Source: an uncultured Clostridia bacterium
Lineage (GTDB): Bacteria > Bacillota > Clostridia > Christensenellales > UBA1242
Direction: 5' to 3'
Assembly: GCA_937907645.1 (NCBI GenBank)
Contig: CALCWV010000065.1
Location: 1-51,291, forward strand
Length of the DNA stretch: 51,291 nt
Shown here: positions 1 to 51,291 of the stretch, one piece after another
Numbering within the stretch: position 1 is the stretch's first letter
Layout: every line of letters starts with the position of its first letter
Translations under genes and position numbers: made by a program
Notes under the pieces: model-generated
What the model was told of the DNA's origin: nothing
Database searches by the model: none
Seen by the model: the letters and a program-made list of their open reading frames with translations, nothing else

Positions 1-95
1 AAAAACTTGCCACTGGCAACTTTTCTTAACGCGTCGCCCCCTCCGTCTCCACCAAGCAAAGATAAAAAGGACGTTAAAGTCCTTTTTTCTTTGCA

Positions 96-3467: not shown

Positions 3468-3480
3468 TCATAAAACAACA

Positions 3481-3506
3481 AAAAACGGGCAATACGCTCG
3501 TTTTTT
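3481..3506. terminator. Bidirectional terminator between the convergent trxB and ung genes
   Basis: CGGGC/GCTCG stem flanked by an A-run and a T-run. Confidence 0.65.
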
Positions 3507-3522
3507 ATATATTTTTTTAGGT

Positions 3523-4179
3523 TTAATGCCAATCTATTTCAGTTTGATTGTTTTGTTTTAAAAAATCATTGCACTTCGAAAAATGTTTGCATCCGAAAAA
3601 GCCTCTATATGCAGAAAGGGGACTTGGATGCGGTGCTTTTAGTACTAAGTGCTGAGGTGCAATTCTATCTGCGAAAGCTTGTGCATTTGACCCCCAAAGA
3701 AGAAATACAAGAGGTTTTTCTCTTTTTGAAAGCAGGTCAATTATTCTGCCGGTTATTTCTTCCCAGCCATGTCCTCTGTGTGAGTTAGCTTGCCCGCGTC
3801 TTACAGTCAATGTTGTATTTAATAGGAGAACTCCTTGTTTTGCCCAGCGAGTTAGATCCCCACTTTTTTCACATTTAATTCCAAGGTCACTTTCAATCTC
3901 CTTATAGATGTTTACAAGAGAAGGAGGGATTGCCGTGTTCCCTTGAACGGAGAAGGCAAGTCCGTGGGCTTGCCCTGGTTCATGATATGGGTCTTGTCCA
4001 ATGATCACGACCTTAACTTCGTCAAAAGGGACAGCATTAAGAGCGGAGAAAATGTTTTCCTCGCTAGGATAGATGGTATAGCGGGAGTTTTCATCTGCTA
4101 AAAATTCTTGTAGTTTTTTGAATGAGTCACTTTCAAAATCTTTTTTGAGAAGCTCATACCAGCTCTTTCTTATCTTCAT
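3523..4179 (-). CDS. ung: Uracil-DNA glycosylase
   Basis: GQDPYH catalytic motif and HPSPLS motif. The ORF track starts at GTG 4188, but ATG 4179 has an AAGGTG RBS 6 nt upstream. Confidence 0.9.
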   Translation of the reverse strand: MKIRKSWYELLKKDFESDSFKKLQEFLADENSRYTIYPSEENIFSALNAVPFDEVKVVIIGQDPYHEPGQAHGLAFSVQGNTAIPPSLVNIYKEIESDLGIKCEKSGDLTRWAKQGVLLLNTTLTVRRGQANSHRGHGWEEITGRIIDLLSKREKPLVFLLWGSNAQAFADRIAPQHLVLKAPHPSPLSAYRGFFGCKHFSKCNDFLKQNNQTEIDWH

Positions 4180-5860: not shown

Positions 5861-7102
5861 ATGACTGACAAAAATCTATACAAAGTTTTAAAAGAAAGAG
5901 GCCTTTTATATCAATGTACTGATGAGAAAGCTCTTCAAGAAAGATTGGAAAGTGGCGAGCCTTTAGTTTTGTATGAGGGAACAGATCCAACAGCTGACAG
6001 CTTGCATATAGGACACTGCGTTCCATATTGCATTTTGAGAAGATTTCAAAAAGCGGGACACAAGGTTATACTTTTAATGGGTGGAGCTACTGCATCAATC
6101 GGTGATCCTAGTGGAAAGTCAGAAATGAGAAAAATGCTCACAAAAGAGCAAATAGATCAAAACATTGAAAATATAAAGAAGACATTGAAAGTTTTCTTGG
6201 ATTTTGAGGGAGAAAACCCCGCAATTATTGTAAACAACAAAGATTGGTTCGATAAACTCACATATATCGATTTCATGAGGGATTTTGGAGTACATTTCAA
6301 TGTTAATAAAATGCTTTCAAGTGAAATCTATGACAACAGATTGGAAAGTGGCGGACTCACATTCTTCGAAATGGGATATATGCCAATGCAAGCCTACGAC
6401 TTCATTCACCTTAATAGAGAGTATGGCTGTACTCTTGAATATGGCGGAGGAGATCAGTGGGCAAATATCGTCGCTGGAGTTGAACTTCAGAGAAAATTAA
6501 ATTTTGTAAATGGAACAAATATCAGCTTAATCGGTGCAACAAACCCACTTCTTTTAACACCAGAAGGGAAAAAGATGGGAAAGACTGAAAGAGGAGCTAT
6601 TTGGATTGACAAAGATAAGATTTCTGCCTACGACTTCTATCAAGGAGTATATCAAACACCAGACGCGTGCGTTAAGATGATGTTCGCACTGTTTACAGAT
6701 CTTCCAATGGATGAAATTAACAGAATTATTGCTGAAGATATCGTTAAAGCCAAGAAGAGATTGTCATTTGAAATTACTAAATTTGTAAGAGGGGAAGAGG
6801 ACGCAACCTTAGCAGAAAAGATGTCTGAAAACTTATTCACGCATGGCGGAGATGATGCGCCTGAGTTTGTTATCTCAAAAGATGAGTTTGCTGGCGGAAG
6901 AAATATCTGCGACCTTCTTGTTATTACAAAACTTTGCTCTTCAAAGAGTGAAGCAAGACGTATGATTGAAGGCGGAGGAGTGACAGCTGGAGGCAACAAG
7001 GTGACAAACTTCGCACAAGTTATATCAGAAGCAGATCTTGAAAATAGCTCAATCCTTTTGAAAAAAGGGAAGAAGAACTTTATTAAAGTGGTTGTAAAAT
7101 AA
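5861..7102 (+). CDS. tyrS: Tyrosine--tRNA ligase
   Basis: HIGH motif (SLHIGH), KMGKT (KMSKS-class) motif, and a C-terminal S4-like domain. Confidence 0.93.
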   Translation: MTDKNLYKVLKERGLLYQCTDEKALQERLESGEPLVLYEGTDPTADSLHIGHCVPYCILRRFQKAGHKVILLMGGATASIGDPSGKSEMRKMLTKEQIDQNIENIKKTLKVFLDFEGENPAIIVNNKDWFDKLTYIDFMRDFGVHFNVNKMLSSEIYDNRLESGGLTFFEMGYMPMQAYDFIHLNREYGCTLEYGGGDQWANIVAGVELQRKLNFVNGTNISLIGATNPLLLTPEGKKMGKTERGAIWIDKDKISAYDFYQGVYQTPDACVKMMFALFTDLPMDEINRIIAEDIVKAKKRLSFEITKFVRGEEDATLAEKMSENLFTHGGDDAPEFVISKDEFAGGRNICDLLVITKLCSSKSEARRMIEGGGVTAGGNKVTNFAQVISEADLENSSILLKKGKKNFIKVVVK

Positions 7103-7455: not shown

Positions 7456-7647
7456 GCTAGCGCGCCCTTATGGGCTTGCTTAGCATACCCGCATAAAGAA
7501 ATTCTTTTTCAGCCTTTTGTCCTTTTAAGAACCACAATGAGGAACCTCTATTGGGAACCTTAAAATGCCAAAATCCAAGAAAAATATTTTCCTTTCTGCT
7601 GCCATATTACATTGAAAGAAGATAATCTTGAAATTATCTTTTTTTTC
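7456..7647 (+). ncRNA. Candidate structured RNA module M1 (copy B) with its own intrinsic terminator
   Basis: Collinear with 31325-31479 (+) and 31853-32006 (-), with compensatory changes in at least four helices. Terminator AAGATAAT/ATTATCTT plus T-run at 7619-7647. Confidence 0.45.
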
Positions 7648-7769
7648 TAAAATATTTATCAAAGGCCGACCGTCGAGCCTCGCTCTGCTTTCTTTTTTGG
7701 CTAGTACATTCTAAATTATTAATTTAAAATCATTGAGTTTAAATAATCTAGTTAAATGTAATTTTTTAT

Positions 7770-7804: not shown

Positions 7805-8437
7805 ATGATAATAACAGAAATCAAAAAAATTGGGAAGGGGAATAGATACTCGTTATATATTGACGAGGAGTTCGTTGGTGCGTTTGAAGCGGAAATCCTT
7901 GCAAAGAATAAACTCAAAACAGGACAGGAACTTTCACATGACGAGTTGCAGAGATTAAAGATTGAAAATGGAGATTATGCCTCATTCGATAGAGCTCTGT
8001 CAGTATTAGAAAAGAGCATGAAAACAGAAAAAGGTATTCGTGACTTCCTTATGCAAAAAGGTTATCCGGAGGAGTGCATCGATCGATCTGTTGAGAAACT
8101 CAAAGAGTATGGATACATCAATGACGAATTTTTTGCAGAAAGTTACATTAAGACATACTCATTTAGTAAGGGAAAGAAAAAAATTAAGTATGAGCTTATA
8201 TCTAAGGGCGTGGACAAGCGGATTATAGATGAAAAGCTTGCAGACCTTATTGAAGAAGATGAGGAAATTGAATCCTGCAAGAGGCTAGCTAAAAAGTACT
8301 TAAAAAACAAGGTCATTGATGAGAAAACAAGGAATAAACTTTCAAATCACCTTGTAAGCAAAGGCTTTGGATATGATGTAATTTCAAAGGTTGTAAGGGA
8401 AGTCATAAAGGAGGCTGAAGATGAGAGTTGGGATTGA
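7805..8437 (+). CDS. recX: Recombination regulator RecX
   Basis: 210 aa with a RecX-like three-repeat helical architecture (RALSVLE..., FL..KGY..., L..KGF). Confidence 0.8.
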   Translation: MIITEIKKIGKGNRYSLYIDEEFVGAFEAEILAKNKLKTGQELSHDELQRLKIENGDYASFDRALSVLEKSMKTEKGIRDFLMQKGYPEECIDRSVEKLKEYGYINDEFFAESYIKTYSFSKGKKKIKYELISKGVDKRIIDEKLADLIEEDEEIESCKRLAKKYLKNKVIDEKTRNKLSNHLVSKGFGYDVISKVVREVIKEAEDESWD

Positions 8438-8783
8438 TACGATTGAGCTTGAAAGAGTCTCTATAGAGGACAAGTTTATAAAAAGGATAGCTTGCGAAAG
8501 GGAAGAAAAGTATATTAGAAACTATAAATGTGAAAATGGACTAAGACAAAGAACTGCTGCGCTTTGGTGTGTAAAAGAGGCCGTTATGAAGGCCCTTGGT
8601 CTTGGGAAAGATAGCGGCGTCACAATGAAAGAAATTGAGCTTATGCATGAAGAGTCAGGTCGTCCATACGTGAAACTAAGTGGAGTAGCACAAAAAAAAT
8701 TCGAAGAAATAGGGTGCAGCGAAATTGAAATTTCTCTTTCTCACAGCGAAACAATTGCCACGGCAATATGTATTTGTAAGTAA
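8421..8783 (+). CDS. acpS: Holo-[acyl-carrier-protein] synthase
   Basis: GIDTIELERV N-terminus, W.VKEAV.KALG motif, and SLSHS near the C-terminus. GGAGG RBS. It overlaps the recX 3' end. Confidence 0.88.
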   Translation: MRVGIDTIELERVSIEDKFIKRIACEREEKYIRNYKCENGLRQRTAALWCVKEAVMKALGLGKDSGVTMKEIELMHEESGRPYVKLSGVAQKKFEEIGCSEIEISLSHSETIATAICICK

Positions 8784-8840
8784 AAAAATATAAAAGTTAG
8801 CTAATTTTTCTAAAAAATTAAAAAAATATAGAAAAAATAG

Positions 8841-8869
8841 TTGACTTTTATTTTTTATTATGATAAATT
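8841..8869 (+). promoter_or_regulatory. Putative promoter of helD
   Basis: TTGACT, 17-nt spacer ending in TGA, TAAATT. This implies a ~170-nt leader. Confidence 0.4.
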
Positions 8870-9043
8870 TGTTGAACATAGCCTTGCAAGAAGGTAATTT
8901 AAAATCATTTATGCTTTGACAATTTTAGGCTGAAAGTCATATCCCCCACACGGGAGGAATAGGCTTTTTTTGCATTTTCCGACGATTTGGGGTGACGCTG
9001 CGTAAGCATTGACATACAAAAACTAAGAAAAGGAGGTGTAGTA

Positions 9044-11149
9044 TTGTCAAAAGAAGAAGCGCTCAAGTATGAGCAGGAGCAATATCCGATAATTAAAAGA
9101 CAATTAGAAGATAATCATAAAGAAGTTTTGCGACTTTATGAGATTGCTTGGAAAAGCTGGGACAGAGATCCCGAAAACCACGACGGTGCGCCGAGTGGAA
9201 TCATGGAAATGTATGAGGAGCTGATTCGAAATTACAATCGAAATCAGGATGCACCATACTTCGCGAGGATCATCTTTCAAGAAGATGACAGCGATGAGGT
9301 GACAGATGTATATATCGGAAAGATAGGATATGTCGACCTAAAGAGCACGAAGCTGATTGACTGGAGAGCTCCGATAGCGGATTTATATTATAACGCACCG
9401 CTAGGCAAAGCTTCATATGAAACTTCGATGTTCTATGAAAACCCTCTCATTGATTTAAAGAAGAGGATCGACGGAACGCTGTCACTAAAAAGACAGATCA
9501 GAATTGAGGACAACAAAGTCCTAGAGTTATATGACTTTCAAAACACTGTTTCAACAGACGAATTTCTAAAGCCATATCTAACAGAATCGGCAGATAATCG
9601 ACTAAAGAACATTGTTTCGACTATCCAGCAGGAGCAAAACGAGATTATAAGATTCCCGCTCAACAAAAACACAATTGTGCAGGGAGTTGCGGGATCAGGA
9701 AAGACAACAGTTGCGTTGCATAGACTTTCGTACTTAATGTACAACTACAAAAAATACATTAAAGCGAAGGATTTTATGATAATCTCGCCAAATCAGGTCT
9801 TTATGAGCTACATCTCAAATCTACTAATTGACCTCGATGCCGATCAAGCCTACAGCTACAGCTTGGAAAACATTTTCAAAGAATACACGAAAATAAGAAG
9901 GAATGTACTTGCAAAGCATGAACAGTATGAAAAACTTGAGGAGAGAAGAGTAAATCCCGACTACTTAAGGTTCAAAGGCTCAAAGGAGTTTATAGAAGTA
10001 ATTGATTCCTATCTTGAGGACCTATATAAAGACATCTTCTGCAAAGATCTGAAGATTGAAGGAATAAAAGTCCTTGGCAAAGAGCAAATGTACGATTACT
10101 TCAAGGCAGTTCGACTGAAATGGCTATATCCTTCGTTCGACGCGTGGGTTGGAAAAGTAGTCTTCGACATGAAGATAAACACAGAGCTCACAGATAAGAT
10201 AGAACAGAATTTAAAAGATGAGGATGTTCCGTTTGCCACAAGGCTTTTCATAATGAGAACTCTGCAAAGGCAAGGACTATCGAAGTACTTAAGAAAGTTC
10301 ATGCCAAGTGGACTGACACCTCTGAAGCTATATGTGAACCTCCTAAAACATATAGAAAAATACACGAATTACAAGTGGAGTGTCACGCTCAAAGAGGAAA
10401 CACTTGAAAACTTAAACAGAGGAGTGATTTCTTATGAGGACATGTTCCCGCTAATATATTTACAATACAAATTAGAAGATATAAGAGAATATGACAATAT
10501 AAAACACGTCTTTATCGATGAAGCACAGGACAATTCCTACTTTGCTTACTACGTTTTAAGACAGATATTCCCAAATGCCTATTTCTCAATCTTCGGCGAC
10601 CTCGCGCAAGGATTATACTCCTATCAATCAATAGATAGCTGGGATGAAATAGCTGGCATCTTCGAGAACTCGTCGCAGCTTCCACTCAACAAGAGCTACA
10701 GAACGTCGATAGAAATTATGGAAGAGGCGAATAAGACATTGGAAAAACTTGGAATGACCAAAGCAAGCAATGTTGTAAGACACGGCGAAGAGGTCGAAAG
10801 AAGAAAGGGAATTCCAAGAGATGTAGTGCTTCAGGAAATAAAAGAGATGCGAGAAAAAGGATACAAGACGATAGCAGTTATCTGCAAGGATAAGCGTGAG
10901 CTTGCGAGAGCAAGTATGCTCCTCAGTGATTGCAACCTTCAAATTCTCGACGAAAAGAACTCCAACTACGATGAATTACAAGTTGTACTTCTCACAGTGC
11001 AAACGGCGAAGGGACTCGAGTTCGACGGAGTGATAATCTTCGACGAAGATAGTTTCGACGACAGCGAAAAGCTTGATTTAAAACAGCTGTTTGTTGCAAA
11101 GACAAGAGCTTTGCACAAGCTTTATCTAAACGCAGTAAGCGTCAATTGA
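9044..11149 (+). CDS. helD: HelD-type UvrD-like helicase (helicase IV / RNAP recycling ATPase)
   Basis: N-terminal YFARIIF...DWRAPIADLYY signature. Walker A GVAGSGKTT, FIDEAQD, SYRTS and TAKGLEFDGVII motifs. TTG start behind an AAGGAGG RBS. Confidence 0.8.
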   Translation: MSKEEALKYEQEQYPIIKRQLEDNHKEVLRLYEIAWKSWDRDPENHDGAPSGIMEMYEELIRNYNRNQDAPYFARIIFQEDDSDEVTDVYIGKIGYVDLKSTKLIDWRAPIADLYYNAPLGKASYETSMFYENPLIDLKKRIDGTLSLKRQIRIEDNKVLELYDFQNTVSTDEFLKPYLTESADNRLKNIVSTIQQEQNEIIRFPLNKNTIVQGVAGSGKTTVALHRLSYLMYNYKKYIKAKDFMIISPNQVFMSYISNLLIDLDADQAYSYSLENIFKEYTKIRRNVLAKHEQYEKLEERRVNPDYLRFKGSKEFIEVIDSYLEDLYKDIFCKDLKIEGIKVLGKEQMYDYFKAVRLKWLYPSFDAWVGKVVFDMKINTELTDKIEQNLKDEDVPFATRLFIMRTLQRQGLSKYLRKFMPSGLTPLKLYVNLLKHIEKYTNYKWSVTLKEETLENLNRGVISYEDMFPLIYLQYKLEDIREYDNIKHVFIDEAQDNSYFAYYVLRQIFPNAYFSIFGDLAQGLYSYQSIDSWDEIAGIFENSSQLPLNKSYRTSIEIMEEANKTLEKLGMTKASNVVRHGEEVERRKGIPRDVVLQEIKEMREKGYKTIAVICKDKRELARASMLLSDCNLQILDEKNSNYDELQVVLLTVQTAKGLEFDGVIIFDEDSFDDSEKLDLKQLFVAKTRALHKLYLNAVSVN

Positions 11150-11305: not shown

Positions 11306-11432
11306 AAAAAAGGATAGTACATGGACTATCCTAAATCGCAGCTATATGCCAGCAGAAAGGTTAAAGCTGATGCAGCCTGAGGTTTCGTGCGGCAAATTGT
11401 TTTATTTGAAAAATTGGATGAAATGCAAGGCT
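11306..11432 (-). ncRNA. Shortened variant of module M1 (copy D) with terminator
   Basis: The minus strand reads GCCTTGC...CCGCACGAAA...TTCTGCTGGCATAT followed by terminator AGGATAGT/ACTATCCT plus T-run (11306-11332). It lies 3' of rplL in the same orientation. Confidence 0.35.
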
Positions 11433-11434
11433 CA

Positions 11435-11488
11435 CTGTTCAGCACAGGCAGGAGTTTAGCTCTCTAAATGACTGTCTGGGCTGAACAG
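11435..11488 (+). repeat. H-module hairpin with tandem GA/GA internal loop
   Basis: CTGTTCAGC-a-CAGGCAG-GA-GTTTAG-ctct-CTAAAT-GA-CTGTCTG-g-GCTGAACAG. Related copies are at 31559-31598, 32056-32095 and, inverted, 31291-31320. Confidence 0.6.
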
Positions 11489-11534
11489 TAGCAAACGCAG
11501 CAGTTCGCCAATTTTTCAAATAAAAAAACAAAAA

Positions 11535-12512: not shown

Positions 12513-12680
12513 CTTTGTCTCCTTTTTATAATTTTGTGTTTCAAGCAAAATAAAATCTCTACGCCATAAGGAAAGGCATAGAGATTGGAAGAATCTATAT
12601 ATACACCTTATCCTCGGCAAGTTTACGTTAGTAAGTTATGCTTTCGCACTTGCTGTCTATGGAAAGACTTTATTTTACGT
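12513..12680 (-). promoter_or_regulatory. rplJ 5' leader, probably the L10(L12)4 autoregulatory leader
   Basis: About 165-nt untranslated leader between a consensus promoter and rplJ. The assignment rests on position and known Firmicute biology. I did not verify the structure. Confidence 0.45.
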
Positions 12681-29614: not shown

Positions 29615-29718
29615 GAAATAATGCTTCTTTTTTTATTCTTCAAAAGAGGCAACACCATTTCGCTAGTAAAATTACATATTTTTCTTCTTTTTTCGCATAA
29701 TAAGTTCGAGGTTAAGAT

Positions 29719-31257
29719 ATGAAAGAAGAAGAAAAAACTAAAAAGAAAAAAGGTAAAAAGAGCGTGGTGCTCTGGCTATTTGGAGTGGGCGTTTTTTCTG
29801 TGGCAACGTTACTTGTTAGTCAATTTGCATTTATTGATAATTTTAATTCAAACAAAACGTTTATGGATAACACCACGATAAATGGAATTGACGTTTCAGG
29901 ACTGACAGAAAGGCAGGCCGAGAACGTTGTGGCATACAATCTGCTTAATGTGCGAGATGAGATATCTTTGAATTTAAGTTATAAAGACAAGAATTGGACT
30001 TTTGCAGGCTCTGATTTTGAAATAGCAACAGATATTGATAAAAAAGTGCATGAAGCAATTGAGTATGGTCAGTCAGGAAACTTTTTTGAGAAAAGAAAGA
30101 TAAAAAACAAAGTAAAAAAAGAAGGGCTTGCCTTCAATGTGTCATATAAATCGGTGCTTGGTGGCATCGAAAGTAAAATAGATGATGTCGTGGCAGAAAT
30201 TGAACAGGATAGCGCGCCGGCGGAGGTTGTTTTCAATCCTGACAGCGAACAAAAGTTTGATCTAATTCCAGCAAAAAATGATATAAAAGTTGACAAGGAA
30301 AAGCTTATCCAAGAGATTGATGAGCAGTTAGCGACAAGCAAAACTGCGCAAGTAGAAATCCCAACGACGGAGCTAGTCACGGAGGTTGATAAAGAGGCAA
30401 TTTTATCTAAGCTTGGACTAAGAAGCAAATTTTCAACTAATTATTCAAAGTCAACAAACAACAGAAAAAACAATGTTAAGCGTGCGCTTAGTAGTTTCAA
30501 TGGAATGGTTGTTGCACCAGGGCAAAAAGTTTCTTTCAACGAAACGACTGGCCCAAGGACGGAAGAAAATGGATTTAAAAAAGCAAACATTATCTTAAAT
30601 GGGGCGTACGTGGAAGGCGTAGGCGGGGGAGTGTGCCAAGCATCAACGACGCTTTACAACGCACTGCTTCTTTCAGGAATTGACGTTGTTGAAGCATCTC
30701 ATCATTCACTTCCAGCATCTTATGTGCCTCTTTCGCTAGACGCCATGGTTTCGGAAGGAGTTTCTGACATGGTGTTTGTAAACAATATGGATAGCCCAAT
30801 TTACATCAAAACATATGGAACGGACACTGAAATCATAGTTGAAATTTATGGGAACAAACTTGCGGACGGCGAGGAAATTAGAACTCGCGCAGAACTTGTG
30901 AAAATCCTGCCACACAATGGGGATAAAATTGTTCCAGACACGAACGAAGAATATTCAAACTACATCGTTTATAAGGGTGAGTACTATCGTGTTAAGTATC
31001 CTCAAGAAGGCTACGAATCCAAAGCCTACGTTCAATATTTGAAAGATGGTGAGCTCCTTAGTGAAAAAGAAGTGCGTCATGACTTTTACTATCCTCAAGA
31101 AGGAATAATTATGGAAGGGACTGAAGAAGTTTCCGAAGGAATAACTCTTCCAGAAAATAAAGTAAAATTCATTCCACCTCAAATAGTGACGGAAGCTGAG
31201 ACGATGAATGTGAGGAAGAGGGTTGAAAAAAACAACCCCCCAATGTATAATCCATAA
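29719..31257 (+). CDS. VanW-family protein, membrane-anchored
   Basis: N-terminal TM helix and the VanW core GGGVCQASTTLYNA. 512 aa. Confidence 0.85.
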   Translation: MKEEEKTKKKKGKKSVVLWLFGVGVFSVATLLVSQFAFIDNFNSNKTFMDNTTINGIDVSGLTERQAENVVAYNLLNVRDEISLNLSYKDKNWTFAGSDFEIATDIDKKVHEAIEYGQSGNFFEKRKIKNKVKKEGLAFNVSYKSVLGGIESKIDDVVAEIEQDSAPAEVVFNPDSEQKFDLIPAKNDIKVDKEKLIQEIDEQLATSKTAQVEIPTTELVTEVDKEAILSKLGLRSKFSTNYSKSTNNRKNNVKRALSSFNGMVVAPGQKVSFNETTGPRTEENGFKKANIILNGAYVEGVGGGVCQASTTLYNALLLSGIDVVEASHHSLPASYVPLSLDAMVSEGVSDMVFVNNMDSPIYIKTYGTDTEIIVEIYGNKLADGEEIRTRAELVKILPHNGDKIVPDTNEEYSNYIVYKGEYYRVKYPQEGYESKAYVQYLKDGELLSEKEVRHDFYYPQEGIIMEGTEEVSEGITLPENKVKFIPPQIVTEAETMNVRKRVEKNNPPMYNP

Positions 31258-31261
31258 AAGC

Positions 31262-31320
31262 TTCGCTATGCGTTGTTTACTGCTGTCTATCCCAGACAGT
31301 CATTTACGGGGTTGTAAACT
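31262..31320 (-). repeat. Inverted, 3'-truncated copy of the H/X module
   Basis: 31291-31320 is the exact reverse complement of 32067-32096. On the plus strand it ends in GTAAACTTTTT and could terminate the vanW-family gene. Confidence 0.6.
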
Positions 31321-31324
31321 TTTT

Positions 31325-31479
31325 GCTAGCGCGGGGCTAATGGCCCCTTGCTTCGCATAACCGCACAAATCAATTCTTTTTCAGTATTTTCTCTGTTTCA
31401 GAACCGCCGATGAGGAACCTCTATCGAGAACCTGAAACAAAGAAACTACAAGAAAAATCTCTTGATTTCTGCTGCCATA
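31325..31479 (+). ncRNA. Candidate structured RNA module M1 (copy E1)
   Basis: Collinear with 7456-7606 and with the reverse complement of 31853-32006. It lies 3' of the vanW-family gene in the same orientation. Confidence 0.45.
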
Positions 31480-31558
31480 TCTCTGCGATTGATTTTTATA
31501 AAAACACATATAAAAATTTTAGATAAAAAATCGAGTGAGTCACGAGGCTCGCTGTTCT

Positions 31559-31598
31559 CCTCTGGAATGAGTTTAGTTCTCTAAATGATTTTCAGAGG
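31559..31598 (+). repeat. H-module hairpin
   Basis: CCTCTGGAA-tGA-GTTTAG-ttct-CTAAAT-GA-TTTTCAGAGG, followed by a GTGAATCGC...TTTTTTTCTAAAAT tail like that at 32100-32138. Confidence 0.55.
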
Positions 31599-31655
31599 GG
31601 GACAGCAGAAACAATGTGAATCGCTTAATTTTTTTCTAAAATCAGGCTCTGCAGT

Positions 31656-31699
31656 CAGTTCAGGCAGGCGCATAGTGACCTATGTAACTGTCTGAACTG
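31656..31699. repeat. Long hairpin sharing the CAGGCAG/CTGTCTG stem of the H module
   Basis: 12-bp stem CAGTTCAGGCAG/CTGTCTGAACTG enclosing the inner hairpin CATAG/CTATG. Confidence 0.55.
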
Positions 31700-31731
31700 A
31701 ATGCTAGAAACAAAGCTATGCAAACTTTTGA

Positions 31732-31785
31732 GGCTCGCGCTAGTTATTTTAATTTTAGAAAAAAAAGGCGAGTCGCTAGGCTCGG
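31732..31785 (+). repeat. 54-bp perfect direct repeat, copy 1
   Basis: Identical to 31995-32048 (GGCTCGCGCTAGTTATTTTAATTTTAGAAAAAAAAGGCGAGTCGCTAGGCTCGG). Confidence 0.85.
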
Positions 31786-31811
31786 TGCTTTTAAATTGAA
31801 TGTATTTTAAA

Positions 31812-32006
31812 CAAAAAAAGGATAATACGAAAATTATCCTTTTTCATAGAATTATGACAGCAGAAATCAAAAGATTTTTCTTGTAGTTTCTTTGTTTCAG
31901 GTTCCCGGTAGAGTTCACTCATCGGAGGTTCTGAAACGGAGAAAATACTGAAAAAGAATTGATTTATGCGGCGATAAACTGAGCAAGAGCCATTGGCTCG
32001 CGCTAG
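31812..32006 (-). ncRNA. Candidate structured RNA module M1 (copy E2) with intrinsic terminator
   Basis: M1 body on the minus strand at 32006-31853, then terminator GGATAAT/ATTATCC (31820-31839) plus a U-run. It lies 3' of tuf in the same orientation, with no strong terminator in between. Confidence 0.45.
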
Positions 32007-32048
32007 TTATTTTAATTTTAGAAAAAAAAGGCGAGTCGCTAGGCTCGG
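31995..32048 (+). repeat. 54-bp perfect direct repeat, copy 2
   Basis: Identical to 31732-31785. Its first 12 nt are the 5' end of M1 copy E2. Confidence 0.85.
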
Positions 32049-32055
32049 CATTTCT

Positions 32056-32137
32056 CCCAGGCAGGAGTTTACAACCCCGTAAATGACTGTCTGGGAAAAG
32101 TGACAGAAACGACGCGAATCGCTTTCTTTTTCTAAAA
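32056..32137 (+). repeat. H/X module (hairpin plus GCGAATCGC..TTTTTCTAAAAT tail) abutting the tuf stop codon
   Basis: CCCAGGCAG-GA-GTTTAC-aacccc-GTAAAT-GA-CTGTCTGGG at 32056-32095. Confidence 0.6.
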
Positions 32138-33340
32138 TTATTCGATGATTGTTGAAACAACACCTGATCCAACTGTTCTTCCGCCTTCACGGATAGCGAA
32201 ACGAAGTCCTTCTTCGATAGCAATTGGTGTGATAAGAGTGATTTCCATCTTAACGTTATCACCAGGCATAACCATTTCAACGCCTTTCTCTAATTCGATT
32301 GTTCCAGTAACGTCTGTTGTTCTGAAGTAGAATTGTGGTCTATATCCATTAAAGAATGGTGTGTGACGTCCACCCTCTTCTTTCTTCAATACGTAAACTT
32401 GAGCAGTGAATTTTGTGTGTGGGTGAATTGAACCTGGTTTGCAAAGAACTTGTCCTCTTTCGATATCTGTTCTTTGAATTCCTCTAAGAAGAAGACCTAC
32501 GTTATCTCCGGCTCTAGCTTCGTCAAGAAGTTTTCTAAACATTTCTACACCAGTAATAACTGTTTGTCTTTGTGTTCCCATACCAACGATTTCAACTGTA
32601 TCGTTCATACGAACAACACCTCTTTCTACTCTACCAGTTGCAACTGTTCCACGACCTGTGATTGTGAAAACGTCTTCGATTGGCATTAAGAAAGGTTTGT
32701 CTGTATCTCTCTTTGGAGCTGGGATATAGTTGTCAACAGCGTCAAGTAATTCCCAAATACAGTTAAGGTCTGGGCTGTTTACATCTCCTCTGTCGCAAGC
32801 TTCGTTAGCTTTAAGAGCTGATCCCTTAATAATAGGTGTCTTGTCACCAGGGAATCCGTATTCTGTAAGAAGGTCTCTAACTTCCATTTCTACAAGTTCA
32901 AGTAATTCAGGATCGTCTACTTGATCAACCTTGTTCAAGAATACAACGATATATGGAACACCAACCTGTCTAGCAAGAAGGATGTGTTCTCTTGTTTGAG
33001 GCATTGGTCCATCAGTAGCAGCAACTACTAAGATAGCTCCGTCCATTTGAGCAGCTCCAGTAATCATGTTCTTAACGTAGTCAGCGTGTCCTGGGCAGTC
33101 AACGTGAGCATAGTGACGTTTAGCTGTTTGATATTCAACGTGAGCTGTGTTAATTGTGATTCCTCTAGCTTTCTCTTCTGGTGCCTTATCGATTTCATCA
33201 TATTTCATAGCGTCAGCTAATCCTTTCATAGCTGAAGCACGGCAGATAGCAGCTGTTAATGTTGTTTTACCATGGTCTACGTGTCCAATAGTACCAATGT
33301 TAACGTGTTCTTTGCTTCTGTCAAATTGTTCTTTTGCCAT
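32138..33340 (-). CDS. tuf: Elongation factor Tu
   Basis: [14 protein letters not shown] and NKVD GTPase motifs. 400 aa. Confidence 0.97.
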
Positions 33341-33375
33341 TTTTTAAAAATCTCCTTTTTTAGTTTTACTCTTGT

Positions 33376-33403
33376 ATTTTAGCATACTTTTTTAATTTTT
33401 CAA
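33376..33403 (-). promoter_or_regulatory. Putative internal promoter for tuf
   Basis: On the minus strand: TTGAAA, 16-nt spacer ending in TGC, TAAAAT. Confidence 0.45.
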
Positions 33404-33472
33404 AGTGATTTAACACACTTTTTCAAAAATTATTTTTCCAAGAGAGGGTTGCCCCTCCCCGGTCAAATACAA

Positions 33473-35551
33473 TTAGTCTTTTTTAGCTCTTTCGCCTTTA
33501 ACTTTTTCAGCGATTGAGCGAGGAACTTCTTGATATTTAAGAGGTTCCATAACATATGTTCCTCTTCCTTGTGTTTGTGAACGAAGGTCAGTTGCATATC
33601 CGAACATTTCAGCAAGTGGAACTTCAGCGTTAACGATTTGAACTCCGTTAGCAGACTCGTTTCCTGTAAGTACACCACGACGAGATGTTAAGTTACCCAT
33701 AACTGTTCCAAGGTAGTCGTCAGGAACTTCTACTGAAACTTTCATAATAGGTTCGAGTAGTACTGGATCAGCGAGCTTGCAAGCGTTCTGGAATGCCATA
33801 GATCCGGCAATCTTAAATGCCATTTCAGATGAGTCTACTTCGTGGTATGATCCGTCAGTAACTGTTACTCTAAAGTCAACTGTCTCGTATCCTGCTACAA
33901 CACCATTCTTTCTAGCTTCATCAATTCCGTTGTTAACAGGTTGAATATATTCTTTTGGAATAGATCCACCAACTGTCTTATCAACGAATTCATATCCGCT
34001 ACCAGCTGGCAATGGTTCCATATCGATCACGCAGTGACCATATTGTCCCTTACCACCAGACTGACGAATGAATTTACCTTCAACGTTCTTAACAGCTTTC
34101 TTGATTGTTTCTCTGTAAGAAACTTGAGGTTGTCCGATATTAGCTTCTACTTTGAATTCTCTAAGTAATCTATCTACGATAATTTCAAGGTGAAGTTCTC
34201 CCATTCCTGCAATAAGAGTTTGACCTGTTTCTTGGTTTGTTGAAACTCTGAATGAAGGGTCTTCTCTCATAAGTTTTGCAAGTGCGAGAGCCATTTTTTC
34301 TTGCATATCCTTTGTTTTTGGTTCGATAGCAAGTTGGATAACAGGTTCTGGGAAGTCCATGCTTTCCAATTGGATAGGATGTTTTTCATCACAAAGAGTG
34401 TGGCCTGTGATTGTATCCTTAAGTCCAACGATAGCTGCGATATCTCCAGCTCCTACTTCTGTAATTTCTTGACGTGTGTTAGCGTGCATACGAATAAGAC
34501 GTCCAACACGTTCTGTTTTTCCGTTTACTGAGTTGTAAACGTATGTTCCAGCTTTGAGTACACCACTGTATACACGGAAGAATGTTAATCCTCCTACGAA
34601 TGGGTCTGTCATAATCTTGAATGCAAGACCAGCAAATGGAGCATCTTCGCTTGGAGCTCTTGTTTCTGTTTCACCAGTTTCAGGGTTAATTCCTGTGATA
34701 TGATCGATATCAAGTGGTGATGGTAAATATTCTACCATAGCATCCAAAAGCATTTGAACACCTTTGTTCTTATAAGATGATCCGCAAAGAACAGGTGTAA
34801 GAGCTTTAGAAATTGTTGCTTTCCTAATAGCTTTCTTTAATTCGTCGATTGAGATTTCCTCTCCTTCAAAATATCTTTCTAAAAGAGCATCGTCTGTTTC
34901 AACGATTTTTTCTACCATTTCATCATGAAGTTGTTGTGCTTTATCTTTAAATTCTGCAGGGATATCAGTAATTTCAATAACTTGTCCCATATCATCTTTG
35001 TAAACTTCAGCCTTCATTGTGAGCAAGTCGATAATTCCTCTGAATGTATCAGCTTCTCCGATAGGCATTTGAATAGCAAGAGCCTTTGTCTTTAATCTCT
35101 TTTCAATTGATTCTACGCAAGCGAAGAAGTCAGCTGCGTCTCTATCCATTTTGTTTACGTAAATAATTACAGGAACTTTGTATTTTGTAGCTTGACGCCA
35201 AACTGTTTCAGTTTGAGGTTGTACCTTATCACGAGCACTAAGTACAAGAACAGCACCATCAAGAACCTTTAGTGAACGCTCAACTTCTACTGTGAAGTCT
35301 ACGTGTCCTGGGGTATCAATGATGTTAATCTTATGACCTTTCCATGTACAAGTTGTACAAGCAGAAGTAATTGTGATACCTCTTTCTTGTTCTTGAGCCA
35401 TCCAGTCCATTGTTGCACTACCGTCGTGAACTTCACCGATTTTATGTGTTTTACCAGTGTAGAACAAAATTCTTTCAGTAGTTGTTGTCTTTCCAGCATC
35501 AATGTGGGCCATAATACCAACGTTTCTAGTTAGTCTAAGGTCGTTAGCCAT
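33473..35551 (-). CDS. fusA: Elongation factor G
   Basis: [17 protein letters not shown] and NKMD motifs. 692 aa. Confidence 0.97.
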
Positions 35552-46505: not shown

Positions 46506-49500
46506 TTATGCCCAGTGGATCCATAAATCATCCAAATAGATCCATTCTCCATTTGCATCAGTTATTTGCTGTCCGTTCCATTTTAAATTTTTCTCCAAAT
46601 AATGCTCAGAAGAGTCCCATCGATGAATATTCGTTTCACCGCCGCTGCTTGTTGCGTTTATGTGGTAAGAAGAATCTTTTCCAGTTGGTGATTGTAGAGG
46701 AACTTTGTTTCCATATGAAACCGTCTGATAAATAGCAAAATTTGTAAAGCTTATAAATTGATTTTTACTCCAATTGGTATATGCAGTTAATGCATGATAA
46801 CTATTTGGATTTAAGTTTGAGTCATATTTAAATTCGAAGGTCATACTAACCTTTGTCAGACTAGAACTTAATGTTACCGTCTTATTAGGCCTCTCATACT
46901 TTGATGTGCTTGGGTTAAACATCTCTCCTGCCTCAAATTCTAATGTAACTGTTTTCCCAGGCGTTCCAGTAACATCAAACTCCAGGGTATATTCTTGATT
47001 TTGAAGCATATAATTTTGTAAATTTTGAATAATTGGTCCCGATTGATCTGCCGTCCCCAAACTTGTCCATCTCGCGACTGCGCCTGAATTTTCAATTGTC
47101 CATGTCTTATCTTTATCTTCATTATAAGAATGTAGAAGTAGCGAATTATCTCCTTCGTTGAACTTATACTGGCCATAAAGTCCAAGCACACCAAGTTTAA
47201 AAGTACGTCGTTGAAGTTTAAGCGTCAATGTCAAATTGGCATCTTGTGGATAATGCTCAAAATATTGTACCAAATAATAGAATCCATTTACTAAGTAAGA
47301 GAGAGGATTTCCTTTTTCATCAGTATAACCAGATTCATATTTTCCTCCTATCGGATTTTCCCCCCAGTATCCTACAAGTGAATAACCTGTTGGAGGCGTA
47401 GGCATCGTTATTCTAGTTATTTGATTTGTACAAGCCGCATTCGAATAGAGTTTATTAACACCTCTTCTTAAATAAATAGTTGATGTCCCTCCTGAAGCCC
47501 CATTTTTATCAAGATTTACAGTTACAACATTTCCAACCCATTTTGCTGATAGAGTTTTATCCGATGCAAGGTATTTATAAACATAATCATATTTCACTGT
47601 TCCGGATGATGAAGTTGTTCCAGCTGTGAATGAACCAGTTCCGGCATTTGTATAGAAAGTTCCACTAGTTAAATCAAATAATCCAATTACTCCGTCTGAA
47701 TTTCTTTTTACAGGAATATAATCACGAATCAAAGTACGGTTCTTCCAAACCTTAAAAGCATATAGTTTCATTTTCGAGAAATTATCTGGATTACCTGCTC
47801 GATTATCTGCAAATATTGATAAAGAAGAATTAGATTGTCTTGTAATAGTAGTCGTGATATTATAATCATATGTTGCTGGTCCGCGAATACTAAACTTTTT
47901 TTCTAGTCCATCCAGCGTAATACTTGTTCTTCCTGTAGTCGCTGAAACAGTAGATGCCGTCCAATTTCCTATGCCATCTTTATAAGCAAAAGCCCATTTT
48001 GCATCTCCATTTATATATACCCCAAATGATACATTATTTGAAGTATCTGTGTCAAATGTATGTCCAAAAGGTCGTTGTTGACGAGTCGTTACATCTGTAT
48101 ATTGGAAATCTGCAAACACCTTAATGTCGCTTGTAGTATAAACTCCGGTATCAATATATTGAGTTCCCGTAGATTGAATATAGTCAAGTATCGTATATCC
48201 ATCTATGTTTCCATACCAGCCATTGAATGTATAACCCGTTCTTGTTGGCGTTGGAAGAGTTTCATAGAAAGCTCCATAAGTATATTTTCTTGAAGAAGGA
48301 GAAACACTTCCCCCATTTGCATTAAATGTTGCAGTGTATGTTATTGGAGTCCAATCAGAGTAAATATTTACATTACCTGCATGAATCCAATTCCCTTTTG
48401 CATCCGTATATCCACTAACATTATTTTTCACATTTCCGCTTCCATCGGTTAATTGACTTCCATTTAAACACCAACCCTTGAAACTAAATCCCGCTAACGT
48501 AGGAGTAGAAGGTATTTTTGTTTTGGAGCCATATGTTTGTGTAATTGAATTCAAAGTATTAAGCTTAATAAGTTGAATACTCACTTTACAATTTGTAAAT
48601 TTATATCCCCATTTTCCGTCAGAGTTGGCAGCTGAACCTTTCCAAATCCAGAAACTACAAGTTTCAATTTCTTGCTGATTTTGCTCTGAGATTGTTACAA
48701 CTCCTGAAATCCAAGTTTCACCAACTGCTGGTAATCTTCCAAGGCTTTGATAAACACGGGCACCAGACAAGTTAGTTCTATCTCCACGTTTAAATTCGAA
48801 TGCTAAACAAGCTCCCGTTCCCAATCTTTCAAACGATCCGTCGAGGGTACTTACTTTAAACGCATATCTCTCTCCAGCTTTAACTCTCAATCCACGTAGA
48901 AGGCCAATCGTAATATTTGCATTTGTCATTGAACCATTTAAAGTCATACTTGCTCCGTCTGAACTTGGAGTAATAGTTATACCTTCTTCTGTTCGTGCTG
49001 TATTTGACCATGTTCCTCCACCATTCAGAGGTTGATAATTATATACTGATGCTGTATATGTATTCGCCGTCCACTGAGGATAAACTGTTGTGTCTGAGGC
49101 TTTTACATATTTTCTATTTGAATCTGTATACCCAGAAAGTGTTTTAATCTTTCCGTCTGCTCCTATAAGCTGTGAACCGCCTGTTTCACTCGTATAATAT
49201 CCGTTGAATGTATAGCCCGTCTTGCTTACTATTGGATTGTTGTCGCAAATTTGATCGTATGTCGCCAATTTGGAAAGCCTGATATTTTTTACATATAGAA
49301 TGTCTCCAACTTCATAAGGGGCATCAAATGTTAACGATTTCCATTGAACATTTTTATCATATGTAAAATCTATCATTCTTGTCTCATAAGTTGTTGATAT
49401 ACTGATTTCTTTTATTAGATAATTTCCCGCCTCAATCCTCATATCTACTACGCTTAATTCTCTGCTCGATTTAATATCAACAGTTAAGCGATATCTTTCG

Positions 49501-51291
49501 CCGTTGACCATATATGGAGAAAAACCGTTAAAATAAACTCTTCCCTTTGGATAAGTTGTATCCACAGCTGTTATCTCCCACTTATATTCTCCCGACCCTG
49601 ATGTAGGCCTTGTAACCGTGCAACCATTTGTCTTTATTCTTGTCTGATTAGAGTATGCAGCAGGTAAAACTGGAAGAATTCCGTTATAAGTTATTGGATA
49701 TTCATTCGCAGTCCACTGTGCATAAAGATTTACAACCCCTCCATTCGTTGAAGTTAAGTTCTTTACGCTTGCTTGGTTAGCGTGTGCAACTGCTCCTGTT
49801 GCAGAGGTCGCCCAGCCTGCAAAAGTATAACCTGTTCTCGTAAAGGCATTTGCTGTTAAATTCTTCGCTGCGTCATATGTGTGGGTGGAATTATTCATTG
49901 TGCCCGCTCCACCATTGGCGTTGTATTTTACTTGATAGGTATTTGGTATCCAAAGGGCTTTGAGGGTTACACTTTCATTCTTGAAGTAGTATGTGTTTGA
50001 ATCCCCAAGTGCATCGTTATTGCTAAATACCTCCGTTGGTCTGATTCCGCTTGTGTTCAGCCATAGATAAGCACAGTTCTTTTCAGGAGTTTTTGGGCCT
50101 GGGATTCCTTCGCTCCACTTATTATAACATCCAAGTGCATAAAACCAACTTGTAATGCCAATTGATCCGTCGATAAATGTCGATGCGGATGAAGATTTGG
50201 CAATCCCCTGAAATGTTGTTGAACTTGTGTTTGAATTCCAATCAATATGAACAGCAGAATATCCTGTGACAGTCCCACTCGTCGCAGGGTTTGACGTCTG
50301 CTTCCACTGATTGTATTTAGTTCCTAAATGGTCATATTGAAGTAAGAATTCAAACGTAGTAAGGTTAAGTTTTGACATTGTGGAGAATTGTGCGTTCCTG
50401 TAAGTATCATTTCTGACCTTTGTCGCTAGATTGTCCGAAGATGAGAAAAGTTGTGTTCCAGAAAGATTGTTGTGATAAAGAATTTGCATCCATTCCTTGC
50501 TGTTTATCGTTTTTGTAGCGATCCACCCCGCGAACGTATATCCCGTTCTTGTCGGGTCGCTAATAGTTGTGGATGTCCCATAGTTTCCGCTAACCGAGGA
50601 ATTTGACGTAGATTCTTTATATTTTCCCCCATTTGGATTAATTGTCACTTTGTAGGTATTCGCCGTCCACTTTGCATAAAGGTTTACGACTGCGCCATTG
50701 GTTGCTGACAAGTTCTTTACGCTTGCCTCGTCATTATGTACTTTATTTCCTGACGCGGATGTCGCCCAACCTGCAAAGGTGTAGCCTGTCCTTGTGAACG
50801 TGTTTTTCGTTAATTTCTTCGCTACATCATATGTGTGAGATGAGTTCGCCATTGAGCCAGATCCGCCGTTAGCATTGTATTTTACTTGATAGCTAATTGC
50901 CGTCCATTTCGCATAGAGGGTTTTATTTCCTGTTGTTTGATACATGTTATTAATACATGTTCCGCTTGCATCTACATATTGTGTTCCAGATCCACCTGTT
51001 GATGTGAAATATCCTTTAAAGGTGTATCCTGTTCTAGTCGGAACAGTGATCTTGTAATTAGCAAGTCCAGAGGTACAAGCTTCATTTGTATAATAATAGT
51101 AAGGTGATGACTGCTCATATTTATACCAAATATTAGTCGTTCCTCCCGTTCCACTCTGCTTGTCAAATGTTACTTTGTAAACATTTGGCGACCACTGTGC
51201 ATAAATTGTATGATCCTTCGTAGAACTTACAACAGCTGTGTCTTTAACCTGTGTTCCACCACTCATTGCTGTAAACCATCCTTTAAACGTA
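46506..51291 (-). CDS. Giant modular surface/adhesin-like protein with Listeria-Bacteroides (Flg_new) repeats, partial with the 5' end outside the window
   Basis: The frame stays open to the window edge (TFKGWFTAMSGG...). It has many copies of the TRTGYTF.GW......(L/V)YA.WT repeat, interleaved with unrelated beta-rich ~150-250-aa domains. Confidence 0.85.
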   Translation of the reverse strand, partial: TFKGWFTAMSGGTQVKDTAVVSSTKDHTIYAQWSPNVYKVTFDKQSGTGGTTNIWYKYEQSSPYYYYTNEACTSGLANYKITVPTRTGYTFKGYFTSTGGSGTQYVDASGTCINNMYQTTGNKTLYAKWTAISYQVKYNANGGSGSMANSSHTYDVAKKLTKNTFTRTGYTFAGWATSASGNKVHNDEASVKNLSATNGAVVNLYAKWTANTYKVTINPNGGKYKESTSNSSVSGNYGTSTTISDPTRTGYTFAGWIATKTINSKEWMQILYHNNLSGTQLFSSSDNLATKVRNDTYRNAQFSTMSKLNLTTFEFLLQYDHLGTKYNQWKQTSNPATSGTVTGYSAVHIDWNSNTSSTTFQGIAKSSSASTFIDGSIGITSWFYALGCYNKWSEGIPGPKTPEKNCAYLWLNTSGIRPTEVFSNNDALGDSNTYYFKNESVTLKALWIPNTYQVKYNANGGAGTMNNSTHTYDAAKNLTANAFTRTGYTFAGWATSATGAVAHANQASVKNLTSTNGGVVNLYAQWTANEYPITYNGILPVLPAAYSNQTRIKTNGCTVTRPTSGSGEYKWEITAVDTTYPKGRVYFNGFSPYMVNGERYRLTVDIKSSRELSVVDMRIEAGNYLIKEISISTTYETRMIDFTYDKNVQWKSLTFDAPYEVGDILYVKNIRLSKLATYDQICDNNPIVSKTGYTFNGYYTSETGGSQLIGADGKIKTLSGYTDSNRKYVKASDTTVYPQWTANTYTASVYNYQPLNGGGTWSNTARTEEGITITPSSDGASMTLNGSMTNANITIGLLRGLRVKAGERYAFKVSTLDGSFERLGTGACLAFEFKRGDRTNLSGARVYQSLGRLPAVGETWISGVVTISEQNQQEIETCSFWIWKGSAANSDGKWGYKFTNCKVSIQLIKLNTLNSITQTYGSKTKIPSTPTLAGFSFKGWCLNGSQLTDGSGNVKNNVSGYTDAKGNWIHAGNVNIYSDWTPITYTATFNANGGSVSPSSRKYTYGAFYETLPTPTRTGYTFNGWYGNIDGYTILDYIQSTGTQYIDTGVYTTSDIKVFADFQYTDVTTRQQRPFGHTFDTDTSNNVSFGVYINGDAKWAFAYKDGIGNWTASTVSATTGRTSITLDGLEKKFSIRGPATYDYNITTTITRQSNSSLSIFADNRAGNPDNFSKMKLYAFKVWKNRTLIRDYIPVKRNSDGVIGLFDLTSGTFYTNAGTGSFTAGTTSSSGTVKYDYVYKYLASDKTLSAKWVGNVVTVNLDKNGASGGTSTIYLRRGVNKLYSNAACTNQITRITMPTPPTGYSLVGYWGENPIGGKYESGYTDEKGNPLSYLVNGFYYLVQYFEHYPQDANLTLTLKLQRRTFKLGVLGLYGQYKFNEGDNSLLLHSYNEDKDKTWTIENSGAVARWTSLGTADQSGPIIQNLQNYMLQNQEYTLEFDVTGTPGKTVTLEFEAGEMFNPSTSKYERPNKTVTLSSSLTKVSMTFEFKYDSNLNPNSYHALTAYTNWSKNQFISFTNFAIYQTVSYGNKVPLQSPTGKDSSYHINATSSGGETNIHRWDSSEHYLEKNLKWNGQQITDANGEWIYLDDLWIHWA

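Follow-up and report, generated by a model that had tools for sequence, protein, structure and literature searches.

Why does an 880-bp spacer full of inverted, hairpin-forming sequence separate two convergent genes of an uncultured Clostridia bacterium, and are these two genes true neighbours? The spacer lies at 31258-32137 of a 51,291-nucleotide contig (CALCWV010000065.1; the whole stretch is hereafter the window). It is flanked by a gene for a VanW-domain protein (vanW, 29719..31257, plus strand) and by the EF-Tu gene tuf (32138..33340, minus strand). We consider it very probable that the spacer is a nested cluster of two lineage-specific, non-coding hairpin repeat families, named H and M1, which have spread through the genome. 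The join between the vanW side and the tuf side is probably rearranged or chimeric.

An earlier reading of the sequence alone (the original prediction) had described the whole vanW-tuf spacer as a repeat mosaic without an open reading frame (ORF), and this description was confirmed. H and M1 elements with their linkers cover about 97% of 31258-32137. The ORF listing of this interval contains nothing longer than 45 aa, and a coding role of the spacer was ruled out on this basis; the short ORF on the minus strand of M1 also varies in length between subfamilies. The elements of the spacer, followed by the copies elsewhere in the window, are as follows.

31256..31321, minus strand: truncated H, an nhmmer match to H-model positions 53-115 including the apical hairpin, also seen in the alignment and in the 31-nt inverted repeat with H3; its outer end overlaps the vanW stop codon (31255-31257)
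31325..31479, plus strand: M1a, a GC hairpin (31325-31350) and a long imperfect hairpin, with no terminator tail of its own
31480..31514, plus strand: tail A, the AT-rich linker between M1a and H2
31515..31642, plus strand: H2, a full-length H palindrome with tips AATTTTAGATAAAAAA...TTTTTTTCTAAAAT; minimum free energy (MFE) -57.7 kcal/mol, z -9.3
31644..31729, plus strand: hp, an H-family variant with another apical loop and without the outer A/T stem; the H and hp models cross-match; z -5.3
31732..31785, no strand assigned: copy 1 of a 54-bp repeat, combining 12 nt from the 5' end of M1 (minus), TTATTT and the initial 36 nt of an H
31812..31845, minus strand: tail B of M1b, a small AT-rich intrinsic-terminator hairpin with T-runs on both strands; -11.1 kcal/mol
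31853..32006, minus strand: M1b, 86% identical to M1a and co-directional with tuf
31995..32048, no strand assigned: copy 2 of this repeat, in which the 5' ends of M1b and H3 meet at their native junction
32013..32140, plus strand: H3, a full-length H palindrome; MFE -59.8 kcal/mol, z -8.8; 32138-32140 is the tuf stop codon (minus strand)
31321..31599, no strand assigned: the only stretch that joins the vanW side to the tuf side, present in neither contig of another assembly of the same strain; the switch zone begins at 31600
7456..7654, plus strand: M1c with a terminator tail (7620-7645), straight after the stop codon of a UPF0029-family gene
7664-7698: partial H 3' end, 3' of M1c
11397..11528, plus strand: solo full-length H between a helicase gene and rplL

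Every repeat in the original map was recovered, and its ten modules collapse into the H and M1 families. The spacer holds three full or near-full H-family copies, one truncated copy and one 36-nt fragment, together with two inverted copies of M1. The supposedly separate CGAG..CTCG hairpin and H with tail are both present, as parts of the single 128-nt palindrome H2 (31515-31642). The module called X/H(+) is only the 3' part of the full element H3 (32013-32140), and the inverted X/H is the truncated H at 31256-31321. The hairpin with a 12-bp stem, placed at 31656-31699, was found at 31651-31704 inside the H-family variant 31644-31729 and is no module of its own. Likewise, the bidirectional terminator at 31812-31845 is an AT-rich hairpin as described and belongs to M1b as its tail; a simple terminator scan skipped it because the scan demands at least three G-C pairs.

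The inverted layout was also verified. A segment (31291-31320) predicted to be the exact reverse complement of 32067-32096 was found as a perfect inverted repeat of 31 nt (31290-31320 vs 32066-32096). The M1 copies at 31326-31479 and 32006-31853 are inverted with 85.9% identity across 156 nt. The 54-bp direct repeat (31732-31785 and 31995-32048) is exact, and its copy 1 is a duplicate of the M1b/H3 junction. The two arms of about 220 bp, described as imperfect inverted repeats, are indeed inverted; each is a copy of one gene-H-M1 module, the two facing head to head, and about 50 nt are deleted from the left arm. The inverted-mosaic look arises because each flanking gene bears the same 3' module (stop codon, H, M1). 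The spacer hairpins have fold z-scores of -5.3 to -9.3 against shuffled sequence, which means that they are far more stable. The motif reported to recur at module joints is real as well. The window contains 10 occurrences of TTTTTNCTAAAAT, where 4.2 would be expected (as many as 10 came up in 0 of 100 shuffles), and this punctuation is the terminal inverted repeat of H, plus the M1 terminator tail at 7641.

The spacer had no match in Rfam at the gathering threshold. At E<=10 only sub-threshold matches were returned, mostly to microRNA-precursor models, which respond to any long hairpin. No match to the spacer was found in plasmid and phage collections, and viral contigs gave 0 matches to the H core or M1 apex patterns.

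H is a full palindrome of 120-130 nt with A-run and T-run tips. Outermost is the tip, usually ATTTTAGAnAAAAAA ... TTTTTTnTCTAAAAT, followed by a GC-rich stem of 10-12 bp and by a conserved asymmetric internal loop with AGGCTCG on the 5' arm and CAGnAAAC on the 3' arm. Further inward lies a third stem, and the palindrome is capped by a conserved apical hairpin that reads CAGGCAGGAGTTTA-loop-TAAATGACTGTCTGG or a near variant of this. The ends of H are inverted repeats, most commonly ATTTTAGA...TCTAAAAT. Many copies differ, for example AATAAGAC/GTCTTATT and ATCAAGCT/AGCTTGAT, and the tips covary between copies rather than keeping one sequence. An alignment of 19 full H copies was folded via RNAalifold. 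Among the 34 pairs, 23 carry double compensatory changes, and 93.8% of the cells are paired compared with 75% in shuffles (the observed value was reached in 0/500). On four of five measures 0/500 shuffles reached the observed value, and on the remaining one, further pair types, 13/500 did. When the partners were slid by 1-3 columns as a control, 36-50% were paired. Little or no variation was seen in the internal-loop motifs, in three G.U pairs and in a loop that contains G.A. H is more structure-like than a classical transposase-bound terminal repeat. Palindromes may also homogenise their two arms without selection. On both strands, the A-run, the GC-rich stem and the T-run amount to a stable stem-loop with a T-rich tract, and the predicted shape of H is that of a giant palindrome resembling a bidirectional terminator.

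M1 is about 155 nt long. It has two hairpins, one GC-rich and the other long, to which a small terminator may be added. Its 5' end is sharp, at CTAGCGCG, with the small GC hairpin. The second part is an imperfect hairpin of about 115 nt with a strongly conserved apex, GAACC-CCGATGAGGAACCTCTATCGG-GAACC, and the 3' end reads ...TTTCTGCTGYCATA. Compensatory changes were found in 14-15 of 49 pairs, and M1 has no terminal inverted repeats. There are two types of tail. Tail A is AT-rich and leads into H, as in M1a. Tail B, seen in M1b (hairpin 31812-31845), is an intrinsic terminator of small size, with T7-8 after a small hairpin; it is also found 3' of M1c (7620-7645) and of the M1 copies at three loci in other metagenomes (L024, L027, L034). 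The short ORF on the M1 minus strand (e.g. 31476-31444 and 31855-31887) starts with ATGGCAGCAG/ATGACAGCAG and encodes MAAEIKRFFL (10 aa) in M1a and M1b. It has 22-35 aa in another M1 subfamily, is not conserved and has no clear Shine-Dalgarno sequence.

Both families are dispersed. An H-core pattern scan of metagenomes gave 18 loci. In 16 loci of other metagenomes, a profile search with nhmmer gave about 45 copies of the H family and 17 of M1, besides the window copies such as 7456-7654 and 11397-11528. The modules are thus a family and are not unique to this locus, as had been predicted. The census material consists of the H-core scan loci and of loci fetched via proteins, and is biased, the loci having been chosen for an H core. 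The possibility that the modules are assembly artefacts was ruled out, as they recur in independent samples (ERZ808286, Ga0256404, ERZ27241654, ERZ1311622). A scan of a genome collection with an M1 pattern gave 10 single matches in unrelated taxa, which BLAST showed to be chance matches.

The elements are also clustered and nested. Within 100 nt of another element lie 55 of the 62 elements. The composite M1-tail A-H recurs as a unit (L030, 88%; L017, 82%; L021, 82%), and so does the composite H-M1-terminator. H is inserted in M1 at one same position in three different M1 copies (L018, L019, L033), and M1 5' ends adjoin truncated H or M1 copies. At L030, repeat clusters stand on both sides of the formate-tetrahydrofolate ligase gene (fhs), and upstream of this gene an hp-H2 block is found in a tandem duplication of about 540 bp (3364-3601 vs 3904-4141). 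The duplicated blocks, of about 240 nt, are almost identical within one genome. This indicates that long identical blocks of such a kind do occur within one genome.

Two further palindromes were noted. An AT-rich one of 80 nt at 8781-8860 (8770-8870: -24.6 kcal/mol) lies between ORFs 8421..8783 and 9044..11149. It has no match to the H, M1 or hp models and shows weak BLAST similarity (80-88% over about 40-50 nt) to L021 and L031; from its sequence, it may be a third repeat type. The other concerns the apical 40-nt hairpin of H, CCCAGGCAGGAGTTTA..TAAATGACTGTCTGGG, which also occurs in another organism (ERZ779888 and related samples) inside a different palindrome of about 150 nt with TTTAACGGCAAA tips (L016 5590-5629; L020 3746-3786 and 3924-3964; L022, L023, L025, L026). 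In this element, A and T runs flank the apical hairpin as in a plain bidirectional terminator. Its distance behind a stop codon is 39-46 nt, and it is oriented to the upstream gene as H is.

Comparison with relatives supports growth of the spacer by insertion. In six loci from five other samples (L035-L040), with EF-Tu identity of 94-96%, the tuf spacer is about 100 bp long and holds a plain terminator, with no H or M1. In these loci tuf is followed, co-directionally, by genes for dUTPase, VTT, LRR_5, SepF and LspA. The relatives' DNA, 116 kb in total, gave one H match and no M1 match. In a closer relative (98%, L034), tuf is followed by an H of another subtype, M1, a terminator, H, M1 and so on. 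A nine-fold growth took the spacer between tuf and the dUTPase gene (dut) from about 100 to 902 bp. The short plain tuf spacers in the relatives indicate that H and M1 expanded in the present lineage and that the tuf 3' spacer grew by insertion.

On the other side, the vanW product carries Pfam VanW and PG_binding_4 domains. Its only named matches, at 54-55% identity, are to 'Candidatus Caccovivens sp.' and to a dubious metagenome-assembled genome labelled 'Acetobacter sp.'. A strain whose VanW is 97% identical has an extra H-type element of about 100 nt after vanW, and its H is full rather than truncated. Two relatives at 82% have vanW followed either by an H-like hairpin (seen by eye, with no nhmmer match) and a tRNA gene, or by a plain terminator and a tRNA gene. 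No relative keeps the spacer as one conserved block. Together with the dispersal of both families, the short tuf spacers and the extra element, these comparisons bear out the suggestion that the locus is a hotspot where such elements accumulate. A single H-family element was also observed in a relative with 96% EF-Tu identity (L040 525-631). It lies in the usual orientation inside a normally single operon, between tuf (757) and a cut upstream ORF ending at 514, which is fusA in the relatives.

An independent assembly of the same strain (ENA ERZ27300227) shows another arrangement. One of its contigs (L001, k119_50880) matches the window at 100% identity, with its end exactly at 31320. The other (L015, k119_51999) is 100% identical from 37340 down to 31600; past this point it differs by three substitutions within H2, and at about 31511 it departs from the window to run into a truncated M1, a terminator and dut. 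The three substitutions indicate that two distinct H2 copies exist. The stretch 31321-31599 is all that joins the two sides. The end of the first contig, at the last base before M1a, would fit a fork with two alternative continuations in that sample. The tuf-dut order agrees with all six relative loci, and from these sequences the native neighbour of tuf appears to be dut. GC skew is continuous over tuf and its downstream genes in L015, L035 and L036, and flips its sign at the window spacer. Across 30000-34000 the cumulative GC skew has its peak exactly at the spacer, the skew being positive on the left side and negative on the right; either a replication terminus or two leading strands joined head to head would fit this pattern.

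The original prediction had offered, as its other option, a long duplex of convergent transcripts. In that account the contig is correct, vanW and tuf are true convergent neighbours, and their overlapping transcripts form a long RNA duplex or a mutual attenuator. The arms are indeed inverted copies with a hairpin between them that has T-runs on both strands, the skew peak would suit a replication terminus too, and assemblers break at repeats more often than they join across them. However, the premise of native neighbourhood is contradicted by the tuf-dut contig and the vanW contig ending at 31320, by the six relative loci from five samples that keep tuf followed by dut, LRR and SepF genes, and by the skew flip; in relatives vanW precedes a tRNA gene, not tuf. 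Each arm is a module found at unrelated genes too, and every H and M1 tail looks like a terminator and would prevent long overlap. We judge this account unlikely.

Instead, we lean toward the view that the vanW-tuf junction is not the main native arrangement. The likeliest origin of the join 31321-31599, on the sequences at hand, is either a repeat-mediated inversion, giving a variant, or a chimeric assembly formed through the near-identical H2/hp blocks. An inversion between these blocks, if real, would be present in part of the population. The spacer was correctly described as far longer than two terminators need, and may be two 3' regions joined. The vanW-tuf junction is unsafe for inferring synteny, operons or a replication terminus without read support, and metagenome assemblies of this lineage are broken or wrongly joined at the H/M1 repeats.

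The position of the elements relative to genes was then considered. Of 21 H copies within 60 nt of an ORF stop codon, 20 have one orientation (for independent loci, about 16 of 17), and the distances to the stop codon are -2 to +46 nt in this biased sample of loci. For tuf, vanW, and L030 fhs and its upstream gene, the stop codon lies at or inside the H tip. The tuf gene ends with GAA TAA|TTTTAG, fhs ends with TTT TAG (TAG 5894-5896 inside the H tip), and the vanW TAA is in the tip. With this orientation lock, the mRNA of the upstream gene would bear the H(-) strand. The strand antisense to the gene folds better in 19/19 H copies (by a mean of 12 kcal/mol) and in 10/10 M1 copies (by a mean of 10 kcal/mol). 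The fixed orientation at stop codons and the stable fold on the antisense strand together make a puzzle. Replication-oriented bias was ruled out as the cause of the lock by L021, where H copies that are not stop-adjacent have both orientations and the stop-adjacent ones follow the gene. Cytosine-deamination bias was rejected as the cause of the strand asymmetry by reasoning alone, as it predicts the opposite sign.

Rather than passive selfish hairpins, H and M1 might be strand-specific functional and mobile 3'-end modules, with the active strand antisense to the gene, acting as a structured antisense RNA or as a folded single-stranded DNA (ssDNA) substrate of a recombinase. This would account for the orientation lock at stop codons, for the G.U pairs and tandem G.A motifs that do not vary, for the conserved internal loops between covarying stems, and for the reuse of the 40-nt apical hairpin by a different palindromic element in another organism. 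We regard such a function as doubtful, with some chance of being correct.

In the RNA form of this idea, H(+) and M1(-) would be transcribed as small structured RNAs, antisense to the upstream gene's 3' end, and the repeats would be a multi-copy family of genes for small RNAs or antisense RNAs. The antisense strand is the better-folding one in every copy compared, and H has invariant G.U pairs and a tandem G.A loop, with its AGGCTCG and CAGnAAAC loops conserved between covarying stems. Where the order is gene-H(-)-M1(+)-terminator, a single antisense strand also holds both of the well-folding strands, and they lie downstream of a hairpin whose two strands both have T-runs. On the other hand, scanning and inspection gave no convincing promoter upstream of M1(-) or H(+), no Rfam family matches, and many copies are truncated, nested or fused, as selfish DNA would be. 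Palindromes can gain 'compensatory' changes by intrastrand repair without RNA selection, and single-stranded DNA, too, forms stable G.T and tandem G.A pairs. The antisense-RNA form is rather unlikely.

The ssDNA form is best weighed together with the known systems. The spacer is a cluster of two new families that belong to a known kind, the small hairpin-forming interspersed repeats. The closest examples are the pneumococcal BOX, RUP and SPRITE elements (PMC3049150). Like H and M1, these are short, non-coding, hairpin-forming and modular, occur in a low-GC Gram-positive host, are enriched 3' of coding sequences (CDS) and have an orientation that mirrors the coding strand. BOX, RUP and SPRITE repeats also cluster and insert into one another, with enrichment downstream of CDS (PMC3049150, PMC10969869). 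SPRITE resembles a Rho-independent terminator near CDS 3' ends (PMC3049150), as do H and the M1 tail; a stem-loop with a T-rich tract, near CDS 3' ends and in an orientation following the gene, was found here. In contrast, H is a far longer full palindrome than the 18-bp stem of SPRITE, and its tips covary rather than being conserved terminal repeats. The better-folding H/M1 strand is antisense to the gene and the host is an uncultured Clostridia-like bacterium, and the likeness to the BOX, RUP and SPRITE repeats is one of description. The present cluster extends this type of nested, terminator-like cluster to an uncultured gut Clostridia lineage. With hidden Markov or covariance models built for H and M1, annotators could mask these repeats.

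[quoted passage not shown] The sizes and copy numbers found here (H 120-130 nt; M1 about 155-200 nt; about 62 copies in 16 loci plus the window copies) are in keeping with this class. MITEs can supply stop codons, terminators or RNA-processing sites, with orientation-dependent effects (PMC10969869, PMC2229807). They differ from H in that no target-site duplication was found for H and the terminal repeats of H vary in a compensatory way.

The BIMEs and REP sequences of E. coli are mosaics of palindromic units and linkers at gene 3' ends, with proposed termination or mRNA-stabilising roles, and resemble H and M1 in this respect. However, REPs have 20-40 nt with a GTAG or CGTC tag (PMC3733652), and H and M1, at 120-155 nt, are three to five times longer. 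REP/REPIN membership was rejected because the GTAG/CGTC tag is absent at element or stem boundaries in the H alignment; no RAYT gene was seen, and no systematic search for one was made.

Integron attC sites, for example the Vibrio cholerae repeats of about 125 nt, are imperfect palindromes right after an ORF, with fixed orientation, strand-specific folding and conservation of structure more than of sequence. H resembles them in its length, its ORF-adjacent imperfect palindrome, its fixed orientation, its strand-specific folding and its structure being kept more than its sequence. Membership was rejected, as H ends ATTTTAG...CTAAAAT and has neither RYYYAAC/GTTRRRY core sites nor a cassette array.

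H could then be a strand-specific ssDNA substrate of a recombinase or transposase, like attC, REP/RAYT or IS200/IS605 ends. This would explain the fixed orientation, the conservation of structure rather than sequence, and the strand asymmetry. Structure is kept while the stem sequence varies, and the unpaired motifs are conserved. Folding is strongly strand-asymmetric, and the element is locked in orientation right after the stop codon. H has a single insertion site in three M1 copies, and the lack of a visible target-site duplication is the outcome expected of insertion of the IS200/IS605 type. Against this stand the lack of attC core sites and of the REP tag and the absence of cassette arrays, with H flanking housekeeping genes (e.g. 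tuf, fhs) and vanW instead. The L021 copies away from stop codons have both orientations, and the stretches that were examined showed neither an integrase nor a RAYT gene, most locus ORFs being unscreened. We consider this form very unlikely.

The reading preferred here is a nested cluster of two dispersed repeat families. For H and M1, dispersal, clustering, stop-codon adjacency, fixed orientation, nesting, empty sites in relatives and conserved hairpins were observed. The host, a gut bacterium of Clostridia-like type, is uncultured, spore-forming and low in GC, and H and M1 may spread in it non-autonomously, by transposition or recombination. New copies would land preferentially beside or inside old copies, downstream of genes, and so build up hotspots. 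They might persist because they are tolerated, or are co-opted as terminators or as hairpins that protect 3' ends, or are harmless there. Near-identical blocks would then promote rearrangements and assembly errors.

Several points weigh against this reading. No target-site duplication was readable in 25 flanked full-length H copies, nor at the H-in-M1 sites compared with intact M1. No transposase partner or parent insertion sequence (IS) turned up when a handful of window ORFs was compared with Pfam, and no search was aimed at a parent IS. The covarying tips of H are atypical for transposase-mobilised MITEs. A terminator or stabiliser function of H and of the M1 tail is inferred from shape and position only. 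The hairpins on the mRNA-sense strand are the weaker ones, which a simple function as mRNA 3' hairpins does not predict. Lastly, the window contig could in principle be correct for a minor subpopulation.

Other features were observed in the window, which contains no tRNA genes. At 94-165 (plus strand), a match to Gut-1 RNA (RF01706) scores 52.3 bits against a gathering score of 50, with a terminator-like palindrome at 56-94 just before it. An ordinary ribosomal protein L10 leader (RF00557, 69.6 bits) is found at 12541-12680 (minus strand), upstream of rplJ-rplL. Within the 1586-aa ORF 46506..51266 (minus strand), a direct repeat of 265 nt is present (49704-49968 vs 50658-50922, 74% identical), and related repeats occur at L017 6356-7102. 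At 29679-29736 there is a palindrome of 58 nt in which the vanW 5' leader pairs with the first codons after the start at 29719 (29670-29745: -17.4 kcal/mol); as modelled, this palindrome could mask the ribosome-binding site of vanW.

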